DNA from: a bacterium
GTDB lineage: Bacteria; UBP15; UBA6099; JAJRTR01
Reading direction: 5' to 3'
Length of the DNA stretch: 64,000 nt
Assembly (NCBI GenBank): GCA_024278215.1
Contig: JAJRTR010000011.1
Location: 25,583 to 89,582 of the forward strand
Positions 15,790 through 63,993 of this stretch are shown here, piece after piece. How positions within the stretch are numbered: the stretch's first letter is position 1; every line of letters begins with the position of its first letter. A program made the translations under genes and the position numbers. The notes below the pieces were generated by a model. That model had not been told where the DNA came from. It saw only the letters and a program-made list of their open reading frames with translations, and did no database searches.

Positions 15790-17220
15790 TTACGCCCTCC
15801 TGCGTTCATACGATGATGGAATTCTCAGTTCTTCTCTGTACTTTGCGACAGTTCTTCGGGCAAGTTTGATGCCTTTCTCAAGCAAAATATCGCGTATGCG
15901 ATTATCTGAAATAGGCTTCTTCGCATCCTCGTTGAAGATGAGGTTTTTTATATATTCCTTAGGCCGGATGGAAGAGTCGAAAAAGAAATCGAAACTGAAT
16001 ATTTCGCCCGATGGAACCCGGATGAATTTTCCCGACATTGCCCTTGAAACCGTCGATTCGTGCAGTTCGATTTTTTCCGCGAGCCGTCCTTGCGTCAGTT
16101 CAGTATTGAAATTGGGTAATCCCTTAATGAGGAATTCCGCCTGCTCCTCACATATCGCTTTTGCTATTTTGTCGAGTGTCTGCTTCCTCTGCTCGATGCT
16201 GTCCTGGTAGAACTTTGCGCGCCTGAAATATTCTCGGACATGGCTCATGTCTTTTCGAGTTATCTCTGTATTGCCCTGCTTGTATGACCTGTACATGTCG
16301 AGATATGTGCTGTTTATCCTGAGCCTGAAATCCGCAAGTTCGAGAACTTCATAGCTGAGCGCCTTTCCGTCATACCGTATCTCTATCGCCGGTTTTGCCA
16401 GTTGCACAGCATCGGTGCTGCGGCCCATATAAGCACGGCCCGGATAAGGGTTCAGGTTTCTGCGTATGAAATCAAGTGTTTCCCTGACACGGCTGACGGG
16501 CACTTCAAGTTCCGTGGCGATTCTCTCATATCTATTTTTTCCGAGGTTTTCGAAGTGCTGATCGATTATCCTTTCCGCGAGTTCGCAGCCTTTTCCTTCC
16601 TCGGCCAGTACGTTCAACTGTATCAGAAGCGCTTCGCGTGCGTCGCGCGCCCCGACACCCGCAGGCTCCAGCGTCTGGATCACTTTCACCACTTCATCAA
16701 TCACCTCGGGCGTGGTCTCAAACATATCGGCAATTGCTGTTTCATCATACGTGAGGAACCCGTCTTCGCTGATCGAGTGCACCAGGAATTCGCCTAGTTC
16801 TTTTGTGCCTTCAGGATATTCGGACGCAAGGAAATTGAGTGTGAGATAATCTCTGAATGAAGTCTCGCGCGATGTGAAACTGGTAAAAGATGTCGCGTCT
16901 TCTCTCTCGCCGATCGGCCCCTCGTAGGGTGCGCTGTCGCCGTCATATTCCATAATTCTCTGCTGGATGAATTGCTCTGTCTGTTCCTCCTCCAGATTGT
17001 CTTTCCTTCCGCAATGTTCGCATCGTGTGCCGTTCATGGGTCTTCCGCAGTGAGGGCATGTAACGATATTTTCGATCTCGAGGGCCGGGTTCTCGCTCAG
17101 TTCCTTCTGTATCTCCTGCACAAGCTCGATTACCGGCATCTGCAAAAGCTGCTGCGATTGGATAAACTGCGGACTAAGGGTTTGTATCTGCTTAAGCGAT
17201 GTGACCAGCTTGATTTCCAA
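15790..17220 (-). CDS. rpoN: RNA polymerase sigma-54 factor RpoN
   Basis: Gln-rich region I; region III; C-terminal RpoN box ARRTVAKYRE. Contains an unusual C4 zinc-ribbon (CPHC...CEHC) in region II. Confidence 0.85.
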   Translation of the reverse strand: MEIKLVTSLKQIQTLSPQFIQSQQLLQMPVIELVQEIQKELSENPALEIENIVTCPHCGRPMNGTRCEHCGRKDNLEEEQTEQFIQQRIMEYDGDSAPYEGPIGEREDATSFTSFTSRETSFRDYLTLNFLASEYPEGTKELGEFLVHSISEDGFLTYDETAIADMFETTPEVIDEVVKVIQTLEPAGVGARDAREALLIQLNVLAEEGKGCELAERIIDQHFENLGKNRYERIATELEVPVSRVRETLDFIRRNLNPYPGRAYMGRSTDAVQLAKPAIEIRYDGKALSYEVLELADFRLRINSTYLDMYRSYKQGNTEITRKDMSHVREYFRRAKFYQDSIEQRKQTLDKIAKAICEEQAEFLIKGLPNFNTELTQGRLAEKIELHESTVSRAMSGKFIRVPSGEIFSFDFFFDSSIRPKEYIKNLIFNEDAKKPISDNRIRDILLEKGIKLARRTVAKYREELRIPSSYERRRA

Positions 17221-31765: not shown

Positions 31766-32290
31766 GTGCGAATAATAGGAGTTGATCCCGGACTTGCCAA
31801 CTCGGGAATCGGAATTGTCGAACAGGACGGCGGCGGCATCACGCTGGTCGGATCGAAATGTATCACCACGCAACCTTCAACATCTTTCCCGGAAAGGCTC
31901 ATGAGCATATACGGCGAGTTAGAGGACGCGCTCGACGAGTATCAGCCCGAGGCGTGCGCAATCGAATCGATATTCTTTGCGAAAAACGCGAAGAGCGCGT
32001 TCCAGGTGGGACACGCACGCGGGGTCTTCATCCTTTCGGCGGGCATTCGCGGCATACCGGTCTTCGAGTACACACCGCCGCAGATAAAGAAAGCGCTGGT
32101 GGGCAAAGGCCGCGCGGATAAATCACAGGTGCAGTACATGACAAAAATGATCCTGAACCTGCCGGAGATACCGAAACCCGACCATGTCGCCGACGCGCTT
32201 GCCGCCGCCATCTGCCATTTGAACTCCATCAAGTTCATGAGTCTCACCGGCTCCGAACAGCTGGTATATAAAAGGAAACGGAAACGCTGA
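31766..32290 (+). CDS. ruvC: Holliday junction resolvase RuvC
   Basis: MRIIGVDPGLANSGIGIVE; RNase H-like fold, 174 aa. Confidence 0.85.
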   Translation: MRIIGVDPGLANSGIGIVEQDGGGITLVGSKCITTQPSTSFPERLMSIYGELEDALDEYQPEACAIESIFFAKNAKSAFQVGHARGVFILSAGIRGIPVFEYTPPQIKKALVGKGRADKSQVQYMTKMILNLPEIPKPDHVADALAAAICHLNSIKFMSLTGSEQLVYKRKRKR

Positions 32291-32292
32291 AA

Positions 32293-32895
32293 ATGATATC
32301 TTTCGTCAGGGGCGATATAACAGAAGTGTCGGAGAACAGCACGGTAGTGGATGTCGGGGGCGTCGGCTATCTCGTCTATATCCCCACGTCGCTTGCGGCA
32401 TCGCTCGAACTCTACGCGAAGGATGTTACAATCCACACATTATTGATTCCGGGCGACGACAAAATGAGCTTGTATGGATTTGCGACACCCGACGACAGAG
32501 CCGTGTTCGAGCTTCTTATCTCAGTGTCGGGGATAGGCCCCAAGGCCGCGGTGAAATTGCTGTCGATGCCGCGCGAACGGCTGACCGACGCCATAGCGGG
32601 CGGAGATGTCGCCGTACTGACGACTGTGCCGGGTGTCGGGCCGAAAACCGCAAAAAGGGTGATACTCGAATTGAAGGACAAAGTCGGCAAACTATACGGT
32701 GGAAGCAAAAGTTATGTGACGTTGCCTGAGACTGCCGGCGGAGAGGCCGAAGCGGCGGTGCAGGGGCTCCAGGCGCTTGGCTACACCGCTTCCGAGATAC
32801 GCGCCATGATGAAAGCGCTCGGCACTGAAGACCTGAAGACAAAGAGCGCGTCCGAACTAATCGGGCTCTGCCTCAAACATAAAAAGGGCGGTTGA
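32293..32895 (+). CDS. ruvA: Holliday junction branch-migration protein RuvA
   Basis: MISFVRGDI...GVGYLVYIP...GIGPKAAVKLLS HhH motifs. No ruvB follows. Confidence 0.85.
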   Translation: MISFVRGDITEVSENSTVVDVGGVGYLVYIPTSLAASLELYAKDVTIHTLLIPGDDKMSLYGFATPDDRAVFELLISVSGIGPKAAVKLLSMPRERLTDAIAGGDVAVLTTVPGVGPKTAKRVILELKDKVGKLYGGSKSYVTLPETAGGEAEAAVQGLQALGYTASEIRAMMKALGTEDLKTKSASELIGLCLKHKKGG

Positions 32896-35304: not shown

Positions 35305-36729
35305 ATGTCGAAAAAAAAGACGGACAACAGAAAAACCGGCGAATCAACAAAACTATGGGGCGGTCGCTTCGAGGAATCGACAAACCGCGCCGTGGAGGCC
35401 TTCTCGGCATCGGTGCATTTCGACTGTGAACTCGCTCTCTTCGACATAATGCAGTCTAAAGCGCACGCGACGATGCTGTGCGAGTGCGGCCTGATAAACA
35501 AGACGGAACTGAAGTCGATTCTGAAAGGACTCGACACGATCCGGGCCGACATCGACAGCGGCGAGTTCGTGTTCTCGCCCGCACTCGAGGATGTGCACAT
35601 GAACATCGAGTCGAGGCTCGCGCAGATTGCGGGCCCGGCCGCGGGCAAGCTCCACACCGCCCGCAGCCGCAACGACCAGGTTGTCACCGACCTGAAGATG
35701 TATATAAAACACGCTGTGGAAAAAATAATCGGCGGTGTGAGGGATGTGCAGGCGGCGCTTGTCGAGCAGGCGCGGCGCCACGAGTCGACGGTGATGCCCG
35801 GATACACGCATTTGCAGAGGGCGCAGGCTGTGCCGCTGGGTCATCACCTGATGGCGTATTTCTGGATGCTGGAGCGTGACGCCGGCAGGTTCGCCGATTG
35901 CGCGGTGCGGATGGACACCCTGCCGCTGGGCGCGTGTGCGCTGGCAGGCTCGGCCCTGAAGACGGACCCGGGAATTGTCGCGCGCGAACTCGGCTTCAAA
36001 TCCATCGCCGAGAACAGTATGGACGCAGTCGCCGACCGCGACTTCCTCGTCGAATATCTCTCGGCTTGCGCGATCCTGATGATACACCTGGGCAGGAGTT
36101 GCGAGGAATTTATTATCTGGATGAGCACGGAATTCGATTTCGTGACTTTCCCCGATTCGCTCTGCACCGGCAGCAGCATCATGCCGCAGAAAAAGAACCC
36201 GGATGTTGCCGAACTCATCAGGGGCAGGAACGGTCGTGTGACCGGCGCGCTCGTATCACTGCTGACAACGCTCAAGGGGCTGCCGCTCACTTACAACAGG
36301 GACCTTCAGGAAGACAAGGAGCCTGCGTTCGACGCGACAAAAACAATATTGACATCGCTGGAAGTCTACGCGCTGCTCGTGCGCGGCGCGGCGTTCAATA
36401 CCGCGCGACTCGCGGAATCTACGGCGGACGGTTTTCTCAATGCCGTGGACATAACCGATTATCTCGTGAAAAAAGGGATGCCGTTCAGGGAAACGCATCA
36501 TGTGGTGGGACGGCTCGTAAAGAGGGCGACGGATGCCGGGCGCAGGAATTTCAATGATTTTACACTGAAAGATTTCCGGGCCGAGTCGGATAAGTTCGAT
36601 GAAGATGTTTTTAAAATTCTCGATCCCGCCAAAGGCGTCAAAAGCAGACGCGGTCGCGGCGCGGCGAGCCCGGCGGATGTTCGCAGGCAGATAAAAAAAG
36701 CGGAAAAGATACTGGCACGGAATAAATGA
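35305..36729 (+). CDS. argH: Argininosuccinate lyase
   Basis: TKLWGGRF...; fumarase/aspartase-family signature region. 474 aa. Confidence 0.9.
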   Translation: MSKKKTDNRKTGESTKLWGGRFEESTNRAVEAFSASVHFDCELALFDIMQSKAHATMLCECGLINKTELKSILKGLDTIRADIDSGEFVFSPALEDVHMNIESRLAQIAGPAAGKLHTARSRNDQVVTDLKMYIKHAVEKIIGGVRDVQAALVEQARRHESTVMPGYTHLQRAQAVPLGHHLMAYFWMLERDAGRFADCAVRMDTLPLGACALAGSALKTDPGIVARELGFKSIAENSMDAVADRDFLVEYLSACAILMIHLGRSCEEFIIWMSTEFDFVTFPDSLCTGSSIMPQKKNPDVAELIRGRNGRVTGALVSLLTTLKGLPLTYNRDLQEDKEPAFDATKTILTSLEVYALLVRGAAFNTARLAESTADGFLNAVDITDYLVKKGMPFRETHHVVGRLVKRATDAGRRNFNDFTLKDFRAESDKFDEDVFKILDPAKGVKSRRGRGAASPADVRRQIKKAEKILARNK

Positions 36730-37559
36730 TTGATTTTACAAATCTCATAAGTTTCTTTGAAAACTTCACCGTCTGGGACGGCGTGCGCTCTGTTATCGAG
36801 ATCACGATCATCAGCCTCGGCATATACTACCTTCTGCTGTTCCTTCAGAGGACGCGCGCCGTGGCGATCTTAAGAGGACTCGCGCTGCTGTTCCTTTTCG
36901 CCGCGGCGTCTTATGTCCTGCAACTCAACACGATTTTTTTCATCCTGAAGGGACTCGGCGCGGTCACGATCATCATCCTTCCGATTATATTCCAGCCCGA
37001 ACTTCGCCGCGGCCTCGAACAGATGGGCCAGCGCGGCCTGTGGCAGCGCAGGTTCGGCGGACTCGAAAAGGAACAGATAATAAAACTTATTCATTCGCTC
37101 GTGCTTACGCTCGAGGACCTTTCGATTGTGAAAATGGGTGCGCTGATTGTGCTCGAACAGGAATCGAAACTCGATGAATATTCGCGTTCGGGTACAAAAC
37201 TCGACGCCCTGCTTACGCCGGAACTTCTGAAAACAATCTTCTTCCCGCACACGTTCCTTCACGATGGGGCCGTGCTGGTGCGGGGCGACCGTGTGATGGC
37301 CGCCGGTTGTTTCCTGCCTCTGTCGGAGAATCCGAATCTGCCACAGGATGTAGGCTCGCGACACAGGGCCGCGCTCGGCATATCGGAAGTGACCGATGCC
37401 GTCGCGCTCACTGTTTCCGAGGAGACCGGCCGCATCTCTCTATCCCACAACGGGAAACTCATCCAGGACATCAAACCCGATGCCCTGCGCGAACTGCTTT
37501 ATTCGATTTGCTTCCCGCAGGGAACGACATTTTCTTCGCCCATTGGGAGTGACGATTGA
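36726..37559 (+). CDS. cdaA: Diadenylate cyclase CdaA (DAC domain, membrane-anchored)
   Basis: 3 N-terminal TMs; DAC motifs LHDGAVLVRGD, GSRHRAALGISEVTDA, VSEETGRIS. ATGA overlap with argH. Confidence 0.85.
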   Translation: MIDFTNLISFFENFTVWDGVRSVIEITIISLGIYYLLLFLQRTRAVAILRGLALLFLFAAASYVLQLNTIFFILKGLGAVTIIILPIIFQPELRRGLEQMGQRGLWQRRFGGLEKEQIIKLIHSLVLTLEDLSIVKMGALIVLEQESKLDEYSRSGTKLDALLTPELLKTIFFPHTFLHDGAVLVRGDRVMAAGCFLPLSENPNLPQDVGSRHRAALGISEVTDAVALTVSEETGRISLSHNGKLIQDIKPDALRELLYSICFPQGTTFSSPIGSDD

Positions 37560-38746
37560 GAAAAAAGATACTGAACAACTGGCGCTACAAAGTTTCCGCA
37601 ATAGTGATATCCACATTGCTGTGGCTCTTCATATATTCCGAACATCAGCCCCGCTTCAGGGCGGATTATCCCGTGAATATTCAATATCTGAACCTGCCGA
37701 TTTCGCTCCGGCTCGTCGACAGGGAAGACGTATTGAGAATAAGACTTCAGGGTGAACCGGCAGCACTCAATAACGTGAATAATGAAACCCTGAAAGCCAC
37801 TGTCGACCTGGCCGGGCTGGGCGAGGGAATCCACCGCGTGCAGGTCAAAGTCTTCAACAGCACCGGCGCGCGGCTCGTTCGTCGAAACCATAATGTGCAG
37901 GTCGAACTCGAAAAGCTCAACAGCATCGAAATGCCTGTCAAACTGGGCTTCTTCGGCTCTCTTCCGGTAGGCATGCGGCTCGGCCACGTTACCTTTACTC
38001 CTGAAAAAGTCGTCATCTACGGCCAGACCGACGAACTGGCGCTTGTCCATCTCGTTGTCGCGAATATCGACCTGACGGAAAAGCAAAAGACTTTTCGTGT
38101 TAATGTGCGCCTGTCGGCGGTCGACGACCAGGGCGTTCCGCTCGACGATACTGTGAAGATCGATCCTGAAAGGATTACCGCCGTTGTTCCGGTGAAAAAA
38201 GAATTCGTCAAGGTTGTGCCCATTACGCCCAGGTTTAAAAAGGGGTCCGGGAAAGGCGGGTTCTCGGAGGCGGATTTCTACCCGACTGTCGTCAATCTCG
38301 TCGGCAACGAAGACGCGCTACGGGATATTAAAACTATAGAGACCGAAGAGTTCGACCTTTCGCGCTGCGAAGAGGGCGGCGTCTTCCCGCTCAGGCTGGA
38401 TACACCCAGAAATGTATTCGCAAATGTCGATCGTGTTACTCTCTCATGCAGGTCCGGTCAGGAAATAACACTATCCTTCCTCGTGAATATAAAAGTACTC
38501 AATCTGTGCGAAAACTGCACGTATCAATTAATTCCGAAAAAAATGAAAGTGACTATTACGGGACCTGACAACAAAGTTAATCAGATAAATATCTCGCAGA
38601 TATCCGCGGTTGTCGATGCGCTGGGACTCAAAGAGGGCACACACGACGTGCGATTGCATGTGGAACTCTCGCCGGGTGTCGAAAACGCACAGCTCGACTT
38701 CAATCGGGATAAAGTGAAACTGGTGATTTCGAAGAAAGAGGAATAG
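37556..38746 (+). CDS. cdaR: CdaA regulatory protein CdaR (YbbR-like repeats)
   Basis: N-terminal TM plus repeated YbbR-like beta domains; conserved position between cdaA and glmM. Confidence 0.75.
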   Translation: MRKKILNNWRYKVSAIVISTLLWLFIYSEHQPRFRADYPVNIQYLNLPISLRLVDREDVLRIRLQGEPAALNNVNNETLKATVDLAGLGEGIHRVQVKVFNSTGARLVRRNHNVQVELEKLNSIEMPVKLGFFGSLPVGMRLGHVTFTPEKVVIYGQTDELALVHLVVANIDLTEKQKTFRVNVRLSAVDDQGVPLDDTVKIDPERITAVVPVKKEFVKVVPITPRFKKGSGKGGFSEADFYPTVVNLVGNEDALRDIKTIETEEFDLSRCEEGGVFPLRLDTPRNVFANVDRVTLSCRSGQEITLSFLVNIKVLNLCENCTYQLIPKKMKVTITGPDNKVNQINISQISAVVDALGLKEGTHDVRLHVELSPGVENAQLDFNRDKVKLVISKKEE

Positions 38747-38751
38747 CATCA

Positions 38752-40113
38752 ATGGGAAATGGTAAAACCCGCAAGAAGATATGTTTCGGCACGGACGGCA
38801 TAAGAGGAGTAGCCAACAGCGAACTCACGCCGGAAGTGGCCCTGCTGATAGGAAAATGCACGGCGCACCAGTTGTGCAATGGCGCGGAGGGCCGCGTGAT
38901 GGTGGCAAAAGACACACGTGTTTCCGGCGACATGCTCGAAGCCGCGCTCGTCGCCGGTATCCTCTCCACCGGCGCGGATGTCTGGCGCATCGGCATCGCC
39001 CCCACCCCGGCACTTGCCTATCTCACAAACATTCGCAATTGTGATTGCGGGCTCATGATCTCCGCCTCTCACAATCCCGTCGAAGACAACGGCATAAAAG
39101 TTTTTTCAGGGAAAGGCTACAAGCTCGATCAATCCGTCGAAGACTGCATCGAGTCGCTTATGTGTGATTGCGGTGCCTCGTGCCGCGCGGTCGGCGGCGA
39201 CGGTGTCGGATATTCGATCAATAAATCTAATATCACCGGAGAATATGTCGACTTTGTGCGCGGTCTGCTCGAAGGTGTCCATTTCGACAAACCTGTTGTT
39301 GTCGATTGCGCCTATGGCGCCGCGTCGCGCTCAGCAAAACGTATCTTTAAAAATGTTTCCGCTGAAATGATTTTCATGCACAGCGATGAAGACGGAAAGA
39401 AAATAAATGTCGATTGCGGCTCGACCCGGCCCGGGTCGCTACAGAAGAAAGTGCTCAAACACGGCGCGGCGCTCGGTTTCGCGTTCGACGGCGACGGCGA
39501 CAGGGTGATTTTCGTAAACGAAAAGGGAGAAGTCGTCGACGGCGACCAGGTCATGCTCCTGTGCGGACGCAAGTTCATCAAAGACGGGAGGCTCAAGGGC
39601 AACACCGTCGTCTCAACCGTAATGAGCAACATGTCGCTTGAAAAAGAGATAGCAAAACTCGGCGGAAAAATGCTGCGCACTCCTGTGGGCGACAAATATG
39701 TCCTGAGGGAAATGAAAAGAAATGGCTATATACTCGGCGGCGAGCAGTCGGGCCACATAATTTTTCTCGACCGCTCGACCACCGGCGACGGGCTTCTCAC
39801 TGCCGCCGAAGTCCTCAAAATCGTCACAGAAGACGGTCGCCCTTTCTCCGAGCAGACACTGCTCGAACGCTCGGCGCAGTTCCTGAAAAATGTCCGTGTG
39901 CCCGACAAAGAATCATTCTATGAAAGCAAAGTTATCTCCGCGAAAGTCAGCGAAATCGAGAACCGGCTTGGAGAAAGCGGCAGGGTGGTTGTCCGCCCTT
40001 CGGGCACCGAACCGCTGATTCGCGTCATGGTCGAGTCATGGGACAAAACCGTCGCGGAAGCATACACCGACGAAATAATTGATACAGTAAAAAACGTGTT
40101 TGAATTGAGTTGA
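38752..40113 (+). CDS. glmM: Phosphoglucosamine mutase GlmM
   Basis: GTDGIRG; active-site loop SASHNPVEDNGIK. 453 aa. Confidence 0.9.
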   Translation: MGNGKTRKKICFGTDGIRGVANSELTPEVALLIGKCTAHQLCNGAEGRVMVAKDTRVSGDMLEAALVAGILSTGADVWRIGIAPTPALAYLTNIRNCDCGLMISASHNPVEDNGIKVFSGKGYKLDQSVEDCIESLMCDCGASCRAVGGDGVGYSINKSNITGEYVDFVRGLLEGVHFDKPVVVDCAYGAASRSAKRIFKNVSAEMIFMHSDEDGKKINVDCGSTRPGSLQKKVLKHGAALGFAFDGDGDRVIFVNEKGEVVDGDQVMLLCGRKFIKDGRLKGNTVVSTVMSNMSLEKEIAKLGGKMLRTPVGDKYVLREMKRNGYILGGEQSGHIIFLDRSTTGDGLLTAAEVLKIVTEDGRPFSEQTLLERSAQFLKNVRVPDKESFYESKVISAKVSEIENRLGESGRVVVRPSGTEPLIRVMVESWDKTVAEAYTDEIIDTVKNVFELS

Positions 40114-54865: not shown

Positions 54866-55042
54866 TCATTTCAAGGCAGTATAACTTATCCCGGATTGGT
54901 AATATATGCAGACTAATGGCAATAGCGTTAAGTTAAGGATGCGAAGATTACAAATATCTGTAACTGTTCACAGCGCTGTGAAGGGAAACACATCCTGTGA
55001 ACAGTTACGATAATATGTTGCTGCCGACAATGCGATAAGGTG

Positions 55043-56314
55043 CTACTCGTAGACTTTTTCATCTGTCAAGTCGGCATTGACGGCGTCGTCCTCGATGTCG
55101 CGGCCCGCCGGGCCGTTCTTCTCGAGTTCTTTATAGTATTCATGCTGTATCAGTGCGTTCATTATCTGGTTTGTGCCGGTCCATATCATGGAAAGCCGCA
55201 TGTCGCGCAGCATTTTCTCGACCGGGTAAACGTCCGTGTAGCCGATGCCGCCCATGATCTGCATCGCATTGTTGACGGCCATCCAGGCGGCTTCCGTACT
55301 TTTCTTCTTTGCCTCGGAGACCAGCCTTCGCGCGTCTTCGCCCGCATCCTGTTTCCGGGCAGCGGCGTACACCAGTCCGCGTGCGGCGTCGAGTTCCGTG
55401 AGCGCGTCGGCCACCATGAAGTTGACCGCCTGGAACTTGCGAATCTTTCTGCCGAAAGCTTTGCGCCGGTTCGAGTAGCGCGCCGCCACCTCGAGCGCCA
55501 CCCGGCCGCTGCCCACCGCGCCCGCCGCGCTCGTCAATCGCTCGGGCACCATCATCGTGTTGAATATCATGCCACCGCCGTTGAGCGGCCCCACAAGGTT
55601 GCTCTCCGGCACTTTCACATCGCGGAACACCAGCCTGCCCGTGCCGCCGCCGCGTGTGCCCATCAGCCCGTATACCTCCTGCACTTCCACGCCCATGTCG
55701 CGCTCGACTATGAACACACTGATCGAGTTGCGCGGGTCGCCGTCGAAGCCCGTGCGCACGTATACGAGAAAATAGTCCGCGCCTTCCGCGCCGACGATGA
55801 ATCGCTTCTGGCCGTTGAGAATAAAATAGTCGCCCTGCTTCTCGGCCTTTGTCGTCGCACCGAAAAAGTCGGACCCGCCGCGTGGTTCCGTCAGCGCCTC
55901 GGCGCATTTCAACTTACCCTGCAACATCGGCTTAAGGTATTTCTCCTTCTGCGCGTCTGTGCCGAAACTGTTTATCGCCTCGCCGATGATCGACGGTAGC
56001 GAGTAGAGGCACGCGAGCGCCCCGCCGAGCGAGCCGATCTCTTCGAGGGCCACAACTTCGGAGCTCCAGTCGAGGCCGCGCCCACCCCATTCTTTCGGAA
56101 ACCGCAATCCAATCAGGTTCTTTTCTGCAAGCTCCTCGACATATTCGTGGGGATATTTAACTTCTTCCCTGTCCATTTTCCGCAGGAGTTCTTTCGGTAC
56201 GCCCCTGACAAATTCTATGATTTCTTTCCTCAGCTCTTTTTGCTCTTCTGTAAGCATGAATTCAAACATGACTGGTACCCCTTTGTTTTGGCATTTACCA
56301 TTATTCTCGTTCAT
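55043..56314 (-). CDS. Acyl-CoA dehydrogenase
   Basis: ACAD N-terminal, middle and C-terminal domain pattern; 423 aa. Confidence 0.8.
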
Positions 56315-58737: not shown

Positions 58738-59337
58738 ATGGCAAGAAGACAGAAAATCAGAATCCTTATCGTTGACGACAACAAGCCGTTCACCAACGTA
58801 GCCCAGTCGTTTCTGGAACAGAAGAATCACATTGTGAAAGTTCTGAACCATCCTGGGAAAGCGCTGGATATGCTGAAAAAGGAAAACTTCCACATCCTGC
58901 TTCTCGACCTTAAGATGCCTGACCAGAGCGGCGAGGAACTCCTCGATAAAATCCGCAAGCAGGATCCACACCTGTGTGTGATCGTTGTCACCGGATATCC
59001 TTCTGTTGAATCCGCACTGTCAACAATGAAACTGAAGGCGTTCGATTATCTACAGAAACCGTTCGACATGAACGTCCTGGCGGAAGTGATCGACAAGGCG
59101 GTCTACGAACTGGGCATATACACGGACCCGGAAGAAGAGTTGAAGAGAGCGATCGGCACAAAGCTGAGGCAACTTCGCAAAGATGCCAGCTACACGTTAA
59201 AGAACCTGTCCACAAAAACCAGTCTTTCACAGAGCCTGATCTCGAAGATCGAACTGGGGAACACCTCGGCTTCAATCGCCACACTGCTCAAGCTGGCCAA
59301 TGCGCTCAATGTGCCAATCAAAGTTTTCTTCGAGTAA
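58738..59337 (+). CDS. Response regulator with C-terminal XRE-family helix-turn-helix (REC + HTH_XRE)
   Basis: REC ([10 protein letters not shown]...DLKMPDQSG...QKPF). Cro/C1-type HTH ([37 protein letters not shown]). Confidence 0.7.
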
Positions 59338-59397: not shown

Positions 59398-60945
59398 TTA
59401 TGAAGCGCGGTCGGCCTGCCGCCGGCCGGTTGCGCATGACATGATCTTTTCCTGGGTGGCGTCCTCGCGTGAGAATTCGCCGGTTATCGTGCCCTCGTGC
59501 ATGACGAGTATACGGTCGCTCATGCCCAGCACTTCGGGCAAGTCGGATGAAATCATAATGATGCAGACACCCTGCTCGACAAGCTTGTTCATTATCTGGT
59601 ATATCTCGAACCTCGCGCCTACATCCACGCCGCGAGTGGGTTCGTCGAGTATCAGGATTTTCGGTTTGTTGGCGAGCCATTTGCTTATAACGACCTTCTG
59701 CTGATTGCCCCCGCTGAGCGTATTGACAATCACGTTCTGCCCGCTGGTTTTTATATTCAGTTCGTGTATATATTTGTCGACGAGTTTTTTTTCCTCTCCG
59801 GGTTTTATTATTTGCGAAGCGGAGACTTTGTCGAGCGCGGCGAGCGATGTGTTCTCTTTCACGCTCATAATGAGAACGAGCCCGAAGCGCTTGCGGTCTT
59901 CCGTGACGAGTCCGATGCCGCTTCTGATGGCATGTTGCGGATTTTTTATGTCGACCTGTTTCCCCTCGATAAAAAGCTTGCCTGCCGTGTTTGCGGGGAA
60001 AGCGCCGAACATGGCGGTCACAATCTCCGAGCGGCCCGACCCCATGAGGCCGGCCATGCCGAGTATCTCACCTTTGTGTGCTGTGAACGATACATTCTCG
60101 ACGATCTTTTCGCCGGGAAGGAACGGATTCGCGACATACATGTTTTCGACCCGGACGGCCTCTTCGCCGATTTCGGCATTTCTGTCGGGATAAAGTTGTG
60201 TGAGTTCGCGCCCGACCATGAGCGAAACAAGTCGGTCGTTGTCCAGTTCGCTCACTGGTAATGTCGCGACCGTTTCTCCATCGCGCAGCACAGTGGCGCT
60301 GTCGCATATCTCGAAAATCTCGTCGAGTTTGTGGGAGATATAGATCATGGTGACACCGCGTTTTTTCAAGTCGCGGATAATTTCAAAAAGGGTCTTGATC
60401 TCCATTTCCGTCAGGGCGCTGGTGGGTTCGTCGAGCACAAGTATGTCCGAGCTCACCGAGAGAGCTTTTGCGATCTCGACCATCTGCTGCCTGCCCACCG
60501 AAAGATCTTTTATGAGCGCGGAGGTCGAAATATCTATGTTAAAGGAAGAGATGAGTCCGGCTGCTTCCTCGTTCATTTTTTTTCTGTCGATGAAGCTGAG
60601 CGGTGGTTTTACCGGTTCACGACCAAGGAAAATATTTTCCGCGACAGTGAGTTCCGGTATCAGGTTTAGTTCCTGGTGGATGATCGAAACGCCTGCTTTC
60701 TCTGCTTCGCGTGTGCCGGAAAAGCGGCGTAGTTCGCCTTTGATTATCAGTTCGCCATCATAAGACGGGTACGGATGCACGCCGGAGAGCACTTTCATAA
60801 GAGTGGATTTGCCTGCGCCGTTTTCGCCCACGAGCGCGTGCACCTCGGCTTTCACCGCGCTGAAAGTCACATTTTTCAGCGCGATCACACCCGGAAACTT
60901 TTTCACAATTCCCTTCATTTCGAGAACTGTATCCTGCTGTGCCAT
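59398..60945 (-). CDS. Sugar-type (CUT2-like) ABC transporter ATP-binding protein with duplicated NBDs
   Basis: Two nucleotide-binding domains (GENGAGKST Walker A; LSGGNQQK signature). 515 aa. No permease or binding-protein gene adjacent in the window. Confidence 0.75.
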
Positions 60946-60973
60946 TTTCCCTCCGTGTAAAACGGTGTCGAAT

Positions 60974-61402
60974 TCAGGGTTTAAAATTGGGGCTTGTGCC
61001 CACCTGCTCCTGGACGATTTGATATATGTCCGCGATCAGGCCGCCGATGAGCGGGAGGTTGACCATGTGTGCCAGAAGGTACATTGTGAGTCCGAGCAGC
61101 ACTGTCATACCGAGCCCGAAACCCAGCCCGCGCGCCAGGCCCCACAGAAAGTTAGTGTACCATATACGGCCCGGCCGGGTCACCATATCGAGATATTCGA
61201 CAAACCGCATTCTTTCCATCATCATCGCCAGTTTGTGCAGGTTGCGCACAGTGTCTGTGTCGAGTTGTACAATCTCCCGGGGCTCCGGAATGGAAAAAGT
61301 GCGTGTCTCGGTGTTCTGGTTTCTATCGCTGTTGTCCGGTATGTGATCAGACAAAAAAATCATCTCCATGCTGAATATATAGTGAACCGGTTGCAAAATC
61401 AA
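60974..61402 (-). CDS. Small hypothetical membrane protein
   Basis: 142 aa with a hydrophobic C-terminal half containing NFLWGLARGLGFGLG. TTG start overlapping the stop of the upstream gene. Confidence 0.4.
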   Translation of the reverse strand: MILQPVHYIFSMEMIFLSDHIPDNSDRNQNTETRTFSIPEPREIVQLDTDTVRNLHKLAMMMERMRFVEYLDMVTRPGRIWYTNFLWGLARGLGFGLGMTVLLGLTMYLLAHMVNLPLIGGLIADIYQIVQEQVGTSPNFKP

Positions 61403-63993
61403 AATATTCCGTGTCCGTTCATAACAGCAGTATATTTCTTATCAACAACCAGGGTGTGGTTGACAAGCCAGTCTTTGAGGAAATCCAGGAACTCCATGCC
61501 GGTAACCGCTGTCCCGGATGAGAACCTTTTCCCGAAACTGTCAATATCCTGCATAAGCCTTTTGTGTTCTTTCGCGTGATAATCCAGGTCGTGGTAGCCG
61601 CATTTTTTCATGAGCGTTTCTTCCCTGCTGAAAAGGAAGCCGGCATATTCGGTGAGTTCGCCGAGCTTACCTATAAAAAAAGACTTGTCGCTCAGGTGTG
61701 TGAAAGCCTCACAGAGATTGTTTACCATCTCGAACAGAACTTTGTGCTGTTCGTCGAGTTCACGGACATTTACACTGTAATCTTTTTTCCAGGCAAAAGC
61801 GAAATGTGCGCCGAAAGCACGCATCCTTTTTTCGAAAGTCTCGAAAAGCTTCCACTGAATATTCGGTATCTCGGCGAGCGCCTCACCGGGAATCCTGAAG
61901 CAGGCGGAGTCCTGCGTTGCCCTGGCCTTGAAAAAACTCGCTGTATCGAAGAGCACACTCTCCTCGCCGACAAAACCGCCGCGGCCAAGTGTTTCGATAA
62001 TCTTGTTTTCGGAATAAACCTGTATCTCACCTTCAGCGATCAGGATCAGTTCCGCGCCGTTGCCGTCGGGCAGCAACTCGCCTTCGCGGAAAACAGTTTT
62101 CTCCATCAGGCGGGCGATCCGGTTCTGCATCGGGTAGGAAACCATTTCGCCGAAGAGCCAGGTGCCGAGCAGGAAGCGCCTGTTCTCGTGTGCCCTCATG
62201 ATGTCGTAGTACATATTGTTGCGCTTCACGAATTCCAGGTAGATGTCGCGCGGTATCTCGATAGCCTGGACATAGCTGTCCGCGCGGAAAGTGCCGCCGG
62301 ACTTATCGCCTCTCATGCCTGAAATTTCACCGGCGAGTGTGCCCGCGGAGAGCATGTTTTTTATAGTTGTCTCCGATTCGATGTACTCGACAACACCCGT
62401 GAGAATAAGATAAATGCGTTTATTGACGGCACCGCGTTTGAGAAGAATCGTGCCGGGATTGAGGTTTATTATCGGGAAGTTAAGGATCGTTCTCAGCTCG
62501 TGGTCGGGCGCTGTGGGGAAGTATGAACGCAGGAAACGAAAAGCAGCCTGCATCTTGTAGTCCTGCCGGGCGGCAATGAGGACATCCTGCGTGCCGAAAG
62601 ATGTGCTCGATCCGATTTCCTTTTCCCTGTCGGTGAGTTCGCGCGCAGTGTGGCTCAACAAGATTTTACCCGATGTATCGTCGATAAAATCTTCGGCCGC
62701 GCCGTGCACAAGACCGCCGCCGATGTCAATCTTCTTGAGGTCGACCGGTACAAGGTACTGCTCTTTGACGCTGTCGAAATATTCCTGCGTTATCCCGCTT
62801 TCGGAGTCATCGCCCGTGATCATGTCGCCAAGTACTTTAAATGAAGCGATGTCGGCCATGTGCGCATAAGTTTTATATCCGTTCTCCCAGAACGAGCGGA
62901 AAAAGAAAATGTTGGTTTCAACAGGATGGGGCGAAAGAACGGGTTTCACTTCGAGCCCGTCGATGTTGTTCCAGACGTCGAACTCCAGGTCGTGTATCTC
63001 GAAATACCTCGAGAAGCGTTCTTCGCTCATGGACATGAGCGCTGATAGCTTTTTAGCAACGGATTCGCGAACAAGCGGAGTAGCGAAATATTTTATCATG
63101 TGGTCGGAACGAACAATCGAAGTGAGACTGGCGAAATGGTCGTCGTGGCAATGGGTATGAAATATGCCGTCGATCTCGCTGACACTGATACCGAGAGCCG
63201 TGAGGCTGTGCATGATATTCGGGCCTGCGTCTATAAGATAAAGCTTTCCCTGAAACGAAATTATACTGCCCATGCAAGGACGTGTGAAGTCCCAGCCGTT
63301 GCCCTCTCCAATGTGTATTACCGAAAAGTACTCTTTTCGTATTTTGTGAAACCCGAGAATGTATGCGGATTCGTATCGCTCACCGCGGGCAAGGTTGAGG
63401 TCCACGGTCATGGACCTGTTGCCGTAATATATTTCGTATACGTTGAACCTTCTTCTGCGTATGAACGCGCCGTCCCTGAGTTCCACTTTTTCTTTGTCTA
63501 CGATTCTCACGTCGAGCAGGTCTTCAGTGCGGCTGATCCTGTCGAATGCAAACTTGATCTTTATGCGCATCATGTCGCGAGCGGCAGGCTCGTGTATGCC
63601 GGTCTTCATTATTTCATCTTTGGAAGTAAGGCCGTAGTTGCCGCGAAAGATGTAAGTGCTCTGCGCTTCGACCTGGTTTTTAATGCCGATCAGCATCGGT
63701 TTGCGGCCCGTGTTATTGGGATGATCCGGAATTATCAACCCCTGCCTGTAGAACATCTGGAGAACCGGGAATTCAGCGAGATTGGAGAAATCGCCTTTCT
63801 GCACCGACACATCCGACAGCAGTATTGCGTTGGGACCTGTTTCGAAGCTGGTGCCGTCTTTTTCTTTCCCCGTGATCAGCCCGCGTTTCATCATATGCTT
63901 CACTATATCCGCCGGGCAACCGCACAGCACAAAAAGATCGATCTCCGGGATGCCGATCCAGTATACACCTGCTGTAAGTTTTATCTTTTCCAT
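61399..63993 (-). CDS. Multi-domain sensor: metallo-beta-lactamase fold + two cyclic-nucleotide-binding domains + C-terminal hemerythrin-like domain
   Basis: MBL motif HTHCHDDH; two cNMP-binding-like segments (one with LAGEISGM, one with GGFVGEESVL); hemerythrin HHE-type His/Glu motifs (DEQHKVLFE, HAKEHKRL). The N-terminus lies at the window edge. Confidence 0.6.
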   Translation of the reverse strand: MEKIKLTAGVYWIGIPEIDLFVLCGCPADIVKHMMKRGLITGKEKDGTSFETGPNAILLSDVSVQKGDFSNLAEFPVLQMFYRQGLIIPDHPNNTGRKPMLIGIKNQVEAQSTYIFRGNYGLTSKDEIMKTGIHEPAARDMMRIKIKFAFDRISRTEDLLDVRIVDKEKVELRDGAFIRRRRFNVYEIYYGNRSMTVDLNLARGERYESAYILGFHKIRKEYFSVIHIGEGNGWDFTRPCMGSIISFQGKLYLIDAGPNIMHSLTALGISVSEIDGIFHTHCHDDHFASLTSIVRSDHMIKYFATPLVRESVAKKLSALMSMSEERFSRYFEIHDLEFDVWNNIDGLEVKPVLSPHPVETNIFFFRSFWENGYKTYAHMADIASFKVLGDMITGDDSESGITQEYFDSVKEQYLVPVDLKKIDIGGGLVHGAAEDFIDDTSGKILLSHTARELTDREKEIGSSTSFGTQDVLIAARQDYKMQAAFRFLRSYFPTAPDHELRTILNFPIINLNPGTILLKRGAVNKRIYLILTGVVEYIESETTIKNMLSAGTLAGEISGMRGDKSGGTFRADSYVQAIEIPRDIYLEFVKRNNMYYDIMRAHENRRFLLGTWLFGEMVSYPMQNRIARLMEKTVFREGELLPDGNGAELILIAEGEIQVYSENKIIETLGRGGFVGEESVLFDTASFFKARATQDSACFRIPGEALAEIPNIQWKLFETFEKRMRAFGAHFAFAWKKDYSVNVRELDEQHKVLFEMVNNLCEAFTHLSDKSFFIGKLGELTEYAGFLFSREETLMKKCGYHDLDYHAKEHKRLMQDIDSFGKRFSSGTAVTGMEFLDFLKDWLVNHTLVVDKKYTAVMNGHGIF

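Follow-up and report, generated by a model that had tools for sequence, protein, structure and literature searches.

To our knowledge, few bacterial enzymes that remove cyclic AMP (cAMP) or cyclic GMP (cGMP) are known, and those known to be regulated are fewer still. Rv1339, CpdA, and YfhI are metallo-β-lactamase (MBL) proteins not known to carry fused sensor domains, and a hemerythrin-coupled signalling protein is found in Bhr-DGC of Vibrio cholerae. More generally, the pairing of one catalytic unit with many types of sensor is a habit of second-messenger enzymes. As the atypical class-II phosphodiesterases (PDEs) of family PF12706, Rv1339, CpdA, and YfhI share the signature [T/S]HXHXDH and are related to RNase Z (PMC9293780). 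In GbpA and GbpB from Dictyostelium, an MBL catalytic domain is followed by two cyclic nucleotide-binding (CNB) domains, and the binding of a cyclic nucleoside monophosphate (cNMP) activates hydrolysis (PMC11988041, a 2025 review). Here, we describe an 864-residue protein encoded in a 64,000-nucleotide stretch of bacterial DNA (contig JAJRTR010000011.1 of assembly GCA_024278215.1, positions 25,583 to 89,582; hereafter the window, whose own numbering is used throughout). Its gene lies on the minus strand at 61399..63993 and is followed by genes for a small DUF5665 membrane protein and a CUT2-type ABC ATPase. The protein is a stand-alone, self-contained, widespread, and uncharacterised cytoplasmic signalling enzyme, and we consider the chances a little better than even that it would be an MBL phosphodiesterase that cleaves a cyclic nucleotide, with activation by cNMP and modulation by the hemerythrin.

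An earlier sequence-only reading of this DNA had recognized an MBL fold, two cNMP-binding modules, and a hemerythrin in the 864-residue protein, and each of these scores over its profile threshold in Pfam or NCBIfam. The catalytic MBL-fold domain (residues 218-482; 62548..63342, with this and all other domains on the minus strand) matches both Lactamase_B_2 (PF12706; 31.3 bits, cut-off 27) and Lactamase_B (PF00753; 27.9 bits, cut-off 22.7), and carries the motif HTHCHDDH at residues 279-286. Downstream are cNMP-binding domain A (residues ~497-609; 62167..62505; Pfam stretch 510-592) and cNMP-binding domain B (residues ~620-729; 61807..62136), which correspond to the two stretches matched by cNMP_binding (PF00027; 67.8 bits, cut-off 27.5). 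At the C-terminal end there is a bacteriohemerythrin four-helix bundle (residues 733-860; 61414..61797), which is matched by Hemerythrin (PF01814; 34.8 bits, cut-off 25.3) and by the NCBIfam bacteriohemerythrin model NF033749 (116.2 bits, cut-off 84). The N-terminal domain (N-domain; residues 1-217; 63343..63993) was delineated from the alignment and a residue census of 200 members of the family, with none of the Pfam and NCBIfam models searched matching it. The AlphaFold 2 model of the entire protein has a pLDDT of 82.6 and a pTM of 0.80. Moreover, more than 100 homologues of 860-875 residues align to the protein from residue 1 with a coverage of 99-100%, and we therefore take its N-terminus to be complete, with nothing missing past the end of the window.

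According to the alignment, it is the first 217 residues and the MBL domain, rather than the sensors, that are best conserved. In the MBL domain, His281, His283, Asp285, His286, His356, His378, Asp381, His430, and His448 are invariant in all 200 members of the census, and Thr280 is conserved in at least 90% of the family alignment. Read from these invariant ligands, the MBL domain is probably a binuclear-metal hydrolase and an active enzyme. The N-domain contains about 20 near-invariant polar residues, these including Cys24, Cys26, Asp29, Lys32, His33, Ser60, Asp61, Gln65, Asn71, Glu74, Tyr82, Gln84, His91, Asn94, Gln111, Tyr114, Lys145, and Asn184; its motifs read CGCPADxVKH, GPNAILLSD, HPNNTG, and YIYRGNYGL. 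In the phosphate-binding cassette of the first CNB domain (Gly555, Glu556 ... Thr568, Arg570, and Ala571), the glutamate is present in 169 members (with aspartate in 27 more) and the arginine in 191. The cassette of the second (Gly676, Glu677 ... Arg691, and Ala692) is looser, with Glu677 in 171 members and Arg691 in 136 (68%). When the model was compared with the PDB using Foldseek, the tandem CNB domains of PKA-R and PKG dominated the matches (E 1.8e-15), and the PDB matches found by phmmer likewise cover residues 491-718, the CNB region. For the hemerythrin domain, the PDB sequence matches were to the Methylococcus bacteriohemerythrin (PDB ID: 4xpx; E 2.7e-17) and to DcrH (E 8e-12).

The ligand positions of the hemerythrin domain are His750, Leu787, Glu791, His806, His810, His846, and Asp851, and so the full set of seven di-iron ligands (five histidines, one glutamate, and one aspartate) is incomplete here, though the other six are intact. 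Leu787 replaces the histidine of the HFxxEE motif that is found in 169 of the 173 relatives bearing this domain, and its codon (CTT, 61633-61635) is one base away from the histidine codon CAT. Otherwise, a histidine at this position is missing from only three family members (L004, P0010, and P0039). Since a leucine stands in for an iron ligand, the di-iron site of this particular hemerythrin is atypical, and its sensing may be altered or lost.

To place the protein within a family, we used its first 240 residues as the query against 1.84 billion representative proteins. The family is rare: no more than 268 clusters at 50% identity matched, and these are distributed among several phyla. In all 11 proteins checked (ten representatives scanned with Pfam and the window protein itself), the N-domain directly precedes an MBL domain. 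This core of about 475 residues occurs alone, as in P0266 (483 residues, 47% identity, and gap-free across 473 residues, with contigs of up to 383 kb), with two CNB domains (about 730 residues), and with two CNB domains and a hemerythrin (about 865 residues), this last being the window type. The core is also found fused to REC, GAF, CHASE2, or SBP_bac_3 (representatives in this architecture survey include P0248, P0254, P0260, P0261, P0264, P0273, P0266, and P0326). Because it stands either alone or joined to so varied a set of CNB, hemerythrin, REC, GAF, CHASE2, and SBP partners, the core would seem to behave as a signalling output module. Within the 200-member census, the hemerythrin is present in 173 proteins and missing from 26. 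A pattern scan with one genome per species gave 546 loci that encode relatives, and the best 80 of these (46-63% identity) were analyzed; their hosts include Spirochaetota, Desulfobacterales, anammox Planctomycetota, Nitrospinota, SAR324, Syntrophomonas, Magnetospirillum, and Magnetococcales. The term novel, as used in the sequence-only reading, is thus one that we would withdraw, as hundreds of full-length homologues are already deposited, under names that are just 'bacteriohemerythrin' or 'cyclic nucleotide-binding domain-containing protein'.

In the phosphodiesterase reading that we prefer, the N-domain and binuclear-metal MBL domain would together be the catalytic output, with regulatory inputs from the pair of cNMP-binding domains and from the hemerythrin at the C-terminus. 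The most likely reaction would be the hydrolysis of a 3',5'-cyclic nucleotide, with cNMP on the tandem CNB domains activating the enzyme, as in Dictyostelium GbpA and GbpB, and with the hemerythrin adding control by O2, NO, redox state, or iron. The protein would then be the bacterial equivalent of the MBL-type PDEs of class IIb or atypical class II. The domains, the invariant metal ligands, the modular architectures, and the solitary genomic habit are observed, while which substrate is cleaved, in which direction the enzyme is regulated, and what the hemerythrin senses are inferred. Consistent with such chemistry, the residues T280-H-C-H-D-D-H286 fit the signature of the atypical class-II PDEs, and PF12706 is above its cut-off in all 21 family members tested. 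In addition, a profile of the MBL region compared with the PDB gave as its best match the phage anti-Pycsar protein Apyc1 (PDB ID: 7u2s; E 3.7e-6 over about 128 positions), and the Apyc1 family model (PF23023) matches 20 of the 21 members, though with a best E value of just 9e-6. The solved structure of YfhI (PDB ID: 6KNS) was absent from the matches of this profile at E ≤ 1, and so the relationship is not a close one.

Several observations weigh against this assignment. Following Apyc1 in the list of PDB matches are an arylsulfatase (PDB ID: 8gyg), a PhnP-family diphosphatase (PDB ID: 6b9v), and β-lactamase-like proteins, and PF23023 reaches only 20 bits against a gathering score of 50. The RNase Z model TIGR02651 also matches, if only at residues 239-300 and with 38.6 bits against a cut-off of 292.95 (E 6e-10). 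With Apyc1 falling below its gathering score and the RNase Z models matching the same motif, sequence alone does not separate a phosphodiesterase from a nuclease. Literature searches found no biochemistry for any family member, and a search on the domain combination likewise found nothing relevant. Against the stand-alone view, the gene and its two neighbours may well be co-transcribed in this organism, given that the gaps between them are short (29 and 28 nucleotides), with a terminator-like site in neither.

Of the alternatives, one that we regard as unlikely is that the core hydrolyzes some other small molecule, and that the CNB and hemerythrin domains merely tune this activity. Candidate substrates would then include cyclic dinucleotides, 2',3'-cNMP, other phosphodiesters, sulfate esters, lactones, and thioesters. 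MBL-fold enzymes are chemically diverse, as the arylsulfatase, diphosphatase, and β-lactamase-like proteins among the PDB matches illustrate, and the strongly conserved polar N-domain could itself form a binding site. On the other hand, the THxHxDH motif and the affinity for PF12706 suit the phosphodiesterase group, cNMP phosphodiesterases offer a direct precedent for joining such a domain to CNB domains, and no conserved metabolic neighbours accompany the gene among the 80 loci.

We find it rather improbable that the core is instead an RNase Z-like ribonuclease or nuclease switched by cNMP and hemerythrin, which would make the protein messenger-controlled and not messenger-degrading. Agreeing with such a role are the NCBIfam RNase Z matches already described, the presence of ELAC1 and RNase Z among the PDB profile matches, and the low-scoring structural similarities that Foldseek finds for the N-domain, which include RNase Z and ZipD. 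Long-form RNase Z carries a degenerate N-terminal MBL half, and the order of N-domain and MBL domain is reminiscent of this arrangement. In fact, nearly all the Foldseek matches of the N-domain with a probability above 0.2 are MBL-fold proteins, though these matches are weak (E 0.013-0.1, TM scores 0.3-0.4), and the N-domain was modelled with a pLDDT of 78. As a degenerate copy of the adjoining MBL domain the N-domain was rejected, the hhalign probability being 0.3% and the Foldseek matches weak; that it might be a degenerate MBL-like half is a low-confidence hint from the model. Membership of a defence system was likewise rejected, since the similarities reported by PADLOC were no more than generic ones to CNB and ABC proteins.

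Returning to the phosphodiesterase reading, if the substrate is a cyclic nucleotide, then the family would give many anaerobic and microaerophilic lineages a regulated 'off switch' for their cNMP signalling, would tie the sensing of oxygen or iron by hemerythrin to second-messenger turnover, and would supply a bacterial relative for the unusual GbpA and GbpB of Dictyostelium. A broader proposal, which we put forward tentatively and at somewhat less than an even chance, is that the core is a hitherto unrecognized bacterial output domain of signal transduction, corresponding in prokaryotes to the Dictyostelium class IIb PDEs and perhaps ancestral to them, and one that is wired to CNB, hemerythrin, REC, GAF, CHASE2, and periplasmic-binding inputs. 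In this proposal, the form with CNB and hemerythrin domains would carry out an O2- or NO-gated, feed-forward degradation of cAMP or cGMP, and the N-domain, with its invariant residues rich in Cys, His, and Asp, would be a new element, either one that binds the substrate or a second metal-binding one. Were this to be true, the hosts of the gated form would include sulfate reducers, anammox bacteria, spirochaetes, and magnetotactic bacteria. In any case, the 864-residue family is widespread, strongly constrained, and modular, and its unannotated N-domain, with a conservation close to that of the catalytic site, merits a family definition.

With regard to the locus itself, the three open reading frames (ORFs) called by the sequence-only reading are real, correctly placed, and all on the minus strand. 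The tandem nucleotide-binding domain (NBD) ABC ATPase of the CUT2 (XylG/RbsA) type, assigned by Pfam and NCBIfam, is encoded at 59398..60945 (515 residues), and the DUF5665 protein at 60974..61369, with a probable ATG start at 61369 (131 residues). In its longest-ORF version, the DUF5665 gene spans 60974-61402 (142 residues) and begins at a TTG (61402), which led the sequence-only reading to describe a TTGA overlap between the stop of the 864-residue gene and the next start. While these letters are present in the DNA, the homologues of the membrane protein imply a start downstream: they are 121-126 residues long and begin near window residue 17, and so the ATG at 61369 (or 61363), the former 29 nucleotides past the preceding stop, is the more likely start, making the 'TTGA coupling' probably an artefact of the longest ORF. 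The ATPase ORF begins 28 nucleotides beyond the DUF5665 stop. A promoter and terminator scan gave counts at chance level (7 sites versus 5.0 ± 1.8, and 8 versus 6.4 ± 2.8) and was uninformative on co-transcription.

The sequence-only reading had further proposed that the sensor protein is functionally coupled to the membrane protein and to an 'energy-coupling' ATPase. However, the arrangement of three genes recurs in 0 of the 80 homologous loci, and for this reason the module fails. The sequence-only reading had itself named a lack of such conservation as grounds for refuting its proposal, and that is the outcome here. Within these loci, DUF5665 was not found by phmmer at E ≤ 1e-3, and a relaxed search (--max, E ≤ 100) returned only noise (best E 0.55). 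No CUT2 ATPase adjoins the family gene in any of the 80, and in three it lies 3-5 genes off on the opposite strand. All-versus-all clustering of the neighbouring ORFs revealed no conserved neighbour, the biggest cluster being present in 10 loci and never within two genes of the family gene, and those clusters held in common are generic (LivG-type ABC, class-III aminotransferase, REC-HD_5, SDR, and sigma-54 activators). Telling, too, is the closest relative (P0002, 78% identity), whose gene on contig L081 has no DUF5665 start in the 129 base pairs past its stop, and whose sample carries the pair of DUF5665 (81%) and ATPase (86%) on other contigs (L082 and L083). There, the upstream side of the pair is occupied by a 540-base-pair gap and a divergent Oxidored_q6 gene.

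It is thus very improbable that the sensor-hydrolase, DUF5665 protein, and ATPase form one module in which hydrolysis under signal control is tied to the work of a membrane-associated ATPase; a shared strand, the two short gaps free of terminator-like sites, and an ATPase lacking a local permease speak for it, but against it are the absence of the arrangement from the homologous loci, the separate contigs and other neighbours in the nearest relative, the occurrence of DUF5665 elsewhere in other contexts without an ATPase, and an orphan ATPase of 75% identity with no DUF5665 (both described below). Close spacing of three genes in a single genome is not evidence for a module. Rather, the window juxtaposes two independent and unrelated units, and the adjacency (and any co-transcription) of the 864-residue gene with the DUF5665-ATPase pair is a lineage-specific rearrangement, with no sign of functional coupling. 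As the sequence-only reading proposed, the 864-residue protein, whose domains pass their thresholds, is still best described as a signal-controlled phosphodiesterase or nuclease, and it is the link to the DUF5665 protein and the ATPase that is given up.

In the second unit, the small membrane protein scores 63.9 bits with DUF5665 (PF18910; cut-off 27) and has a single clear hydrophobic helix. The pairing of DUF5665 with the ATPase was found in five of 38 DUF5665 loci (L082-L086), all of them close relatives, and a general association of DUF5665 with CUT2 ATPases was accordingly rejected. In L084-L086 the pair is present with a DUF5665 that is 58% identical, and the gene upstream in L084 is Amidohydro_2. 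Many other DUF5665 loci have a cluster in the order ileS, DUF5665, zf-dksA/traR, lspA, and rluD. We also observed that the more distant DUF5665 genes in L087-L104 show the ileS-lspA-rluD arrangement, with a DivIVA-like coiled-coil gene upstream of ileS and no tie to an ABC ATPase. In five loci (L106, L110, L113, L114, and L115), DUF5665 is followed by a Lactamase_B_3 protein of 250-277 residues and an ORF of about 65 residues (e.g., L115:361-1194), and in L082 a Lactamase_B gene is two genes downstream of DUF5665. A general association of DUF5665 with MBL proteins was also rejected, in that the Lactamase_B_3 proteins of the five loci are unrelated to the 864-residue family by phmmer. Neither they nor the L082 gene show any specific similarity to this family, and their presence is probably a coincidence. 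A literature search on DUF5665 found nothing relevant.

The ATPase has two ABC_tran (PF00005) stretches (177 bits), and its best NCBIfam model is the xylose-type PRK13549, whose cut-off of 699 bits it misses by 8 with a score of 690.9. Its Walker A (GENGAGKS and GLMGSGRS), signature (LSVGRQQ and LSGGNQQ), and Walker B (ILVLDEP and ILILDEP) motifs are all intact, and it is 55-60% identical to annotated XylG proteins. Relatives at 68-70% identity are encoded within ATPase/Peripla_BP_4/BPD_transp_2 operons, and the protein is an ordinary CUT2 sugar-importer ATPase, with nothing to speak for an 'energy-coupling' partner of the sensor. The sequence-only reading had noted no cognate permease or binding protein, and our ORF inspection of the 64-kb window agrees, as it showed no ORF of about 320 residues with 8-10 transmembrane segments of the kind expected for a CUT2 permease. 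Similarly, tblastn of the window with the binding protein and permease from the nearest complete operons gave no match. The membrane and binding-protein partners of the ATPase, if any, would thus be encoded elsewhere. Separately, we noticed that P0132 (75% identity; L120/L121) is a CUT2-type ATPase that is likewise an orphan, having neither DUF5665 nor a permease or binding protein beside it, and sits between Zn-ribbon and radical-SAM genes near uvrB/uvrA. Local transporter partners thus seem to have been lost repeatedly in this ATPase clade.

Elsewhere in the window, a gene at 58738-59337 on the plus strand, convergent to the ATPase gene, encodes a response regulator with REC and HTH_3 (Cro/C1-type) output domains, which is an uncommon pairing. 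A 319-residue ORF at 55040-55999 (plus strand) is wholly antisense to a 423-residue ORF at 55043-56314 (minus strand) and is rich in arginine, histidine, and alanine; it is almost certainly spurious. By eye, the 423-residue ORF is acyl-CoA dehydrogenase-like. Also by eye, from N-terminal sequences, we noted a putative trio of cdaA-like, YbbR-like, and glmM-like genes (36726-40113, plus strand), a putative sigma-54-like gene (15790-17220, minus strand), and putative ruvC/ruvA-like genes (31766-32895, plus strand).

When set beside known systems, the ATPase resembles the CUT2 importers (XylG, RbsA, and GguA) in its 515 residues, two fused NBDs, and full complement of motifs, but differs in having no adjacent permease or binding protein and in being preceded by DUF5665, the latter in this lineage only. 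With the Desulfovibrio chemoreceptor DcrH, the 864-residue protein shares a bacteriohemerythrin O2/redox input, C- or N-terminal in such proteins, fused to a signalling module, though compared with DcrH and Bhr-DGC its output is an MBL hydrolase and not a methyl-accepting chemotaxis protein or GGDEF domain, and one histidine ligand is lost (Leu787). Apyc1 (PDB ID: 7u2s; PF23023) is likewise of the MBL fold, degrades cyclic mononucleotides, and is the best match among solved structures. In contrast, it is a 250-residue phage protein without regulatory domains, and the window has no defence or phage context. The atypical class-II PDEs (Rv1339 from M. tuberculosis, CpdA from C. glutamicum, and YfhI from B. 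subtilis) have in common with the window protein the motif, PF12706, and the relationship to RNase Z, whereas the MBL domain of the window protein is fused to the N-domain and sensors. Similar in layout are GbpA and GbpB (PdeD and PdeE, class IIb), which are cytosolic and have an MBL catalytic domain with the HxHxDH motif and two CNB domains downstream, a likeness that is one of domain architecture as described in the review. Conversely, the window protein is bacterial, has an additional C-terminal hemerythrin (as do 173 of the 200 members), and begins with a conserved N-domain of 217 residues. Its architecture is that of the class IIb and atypical class-II phosphodiesterases, extended by a hemerythrin input and by a conserved N-domain that has no annotation.

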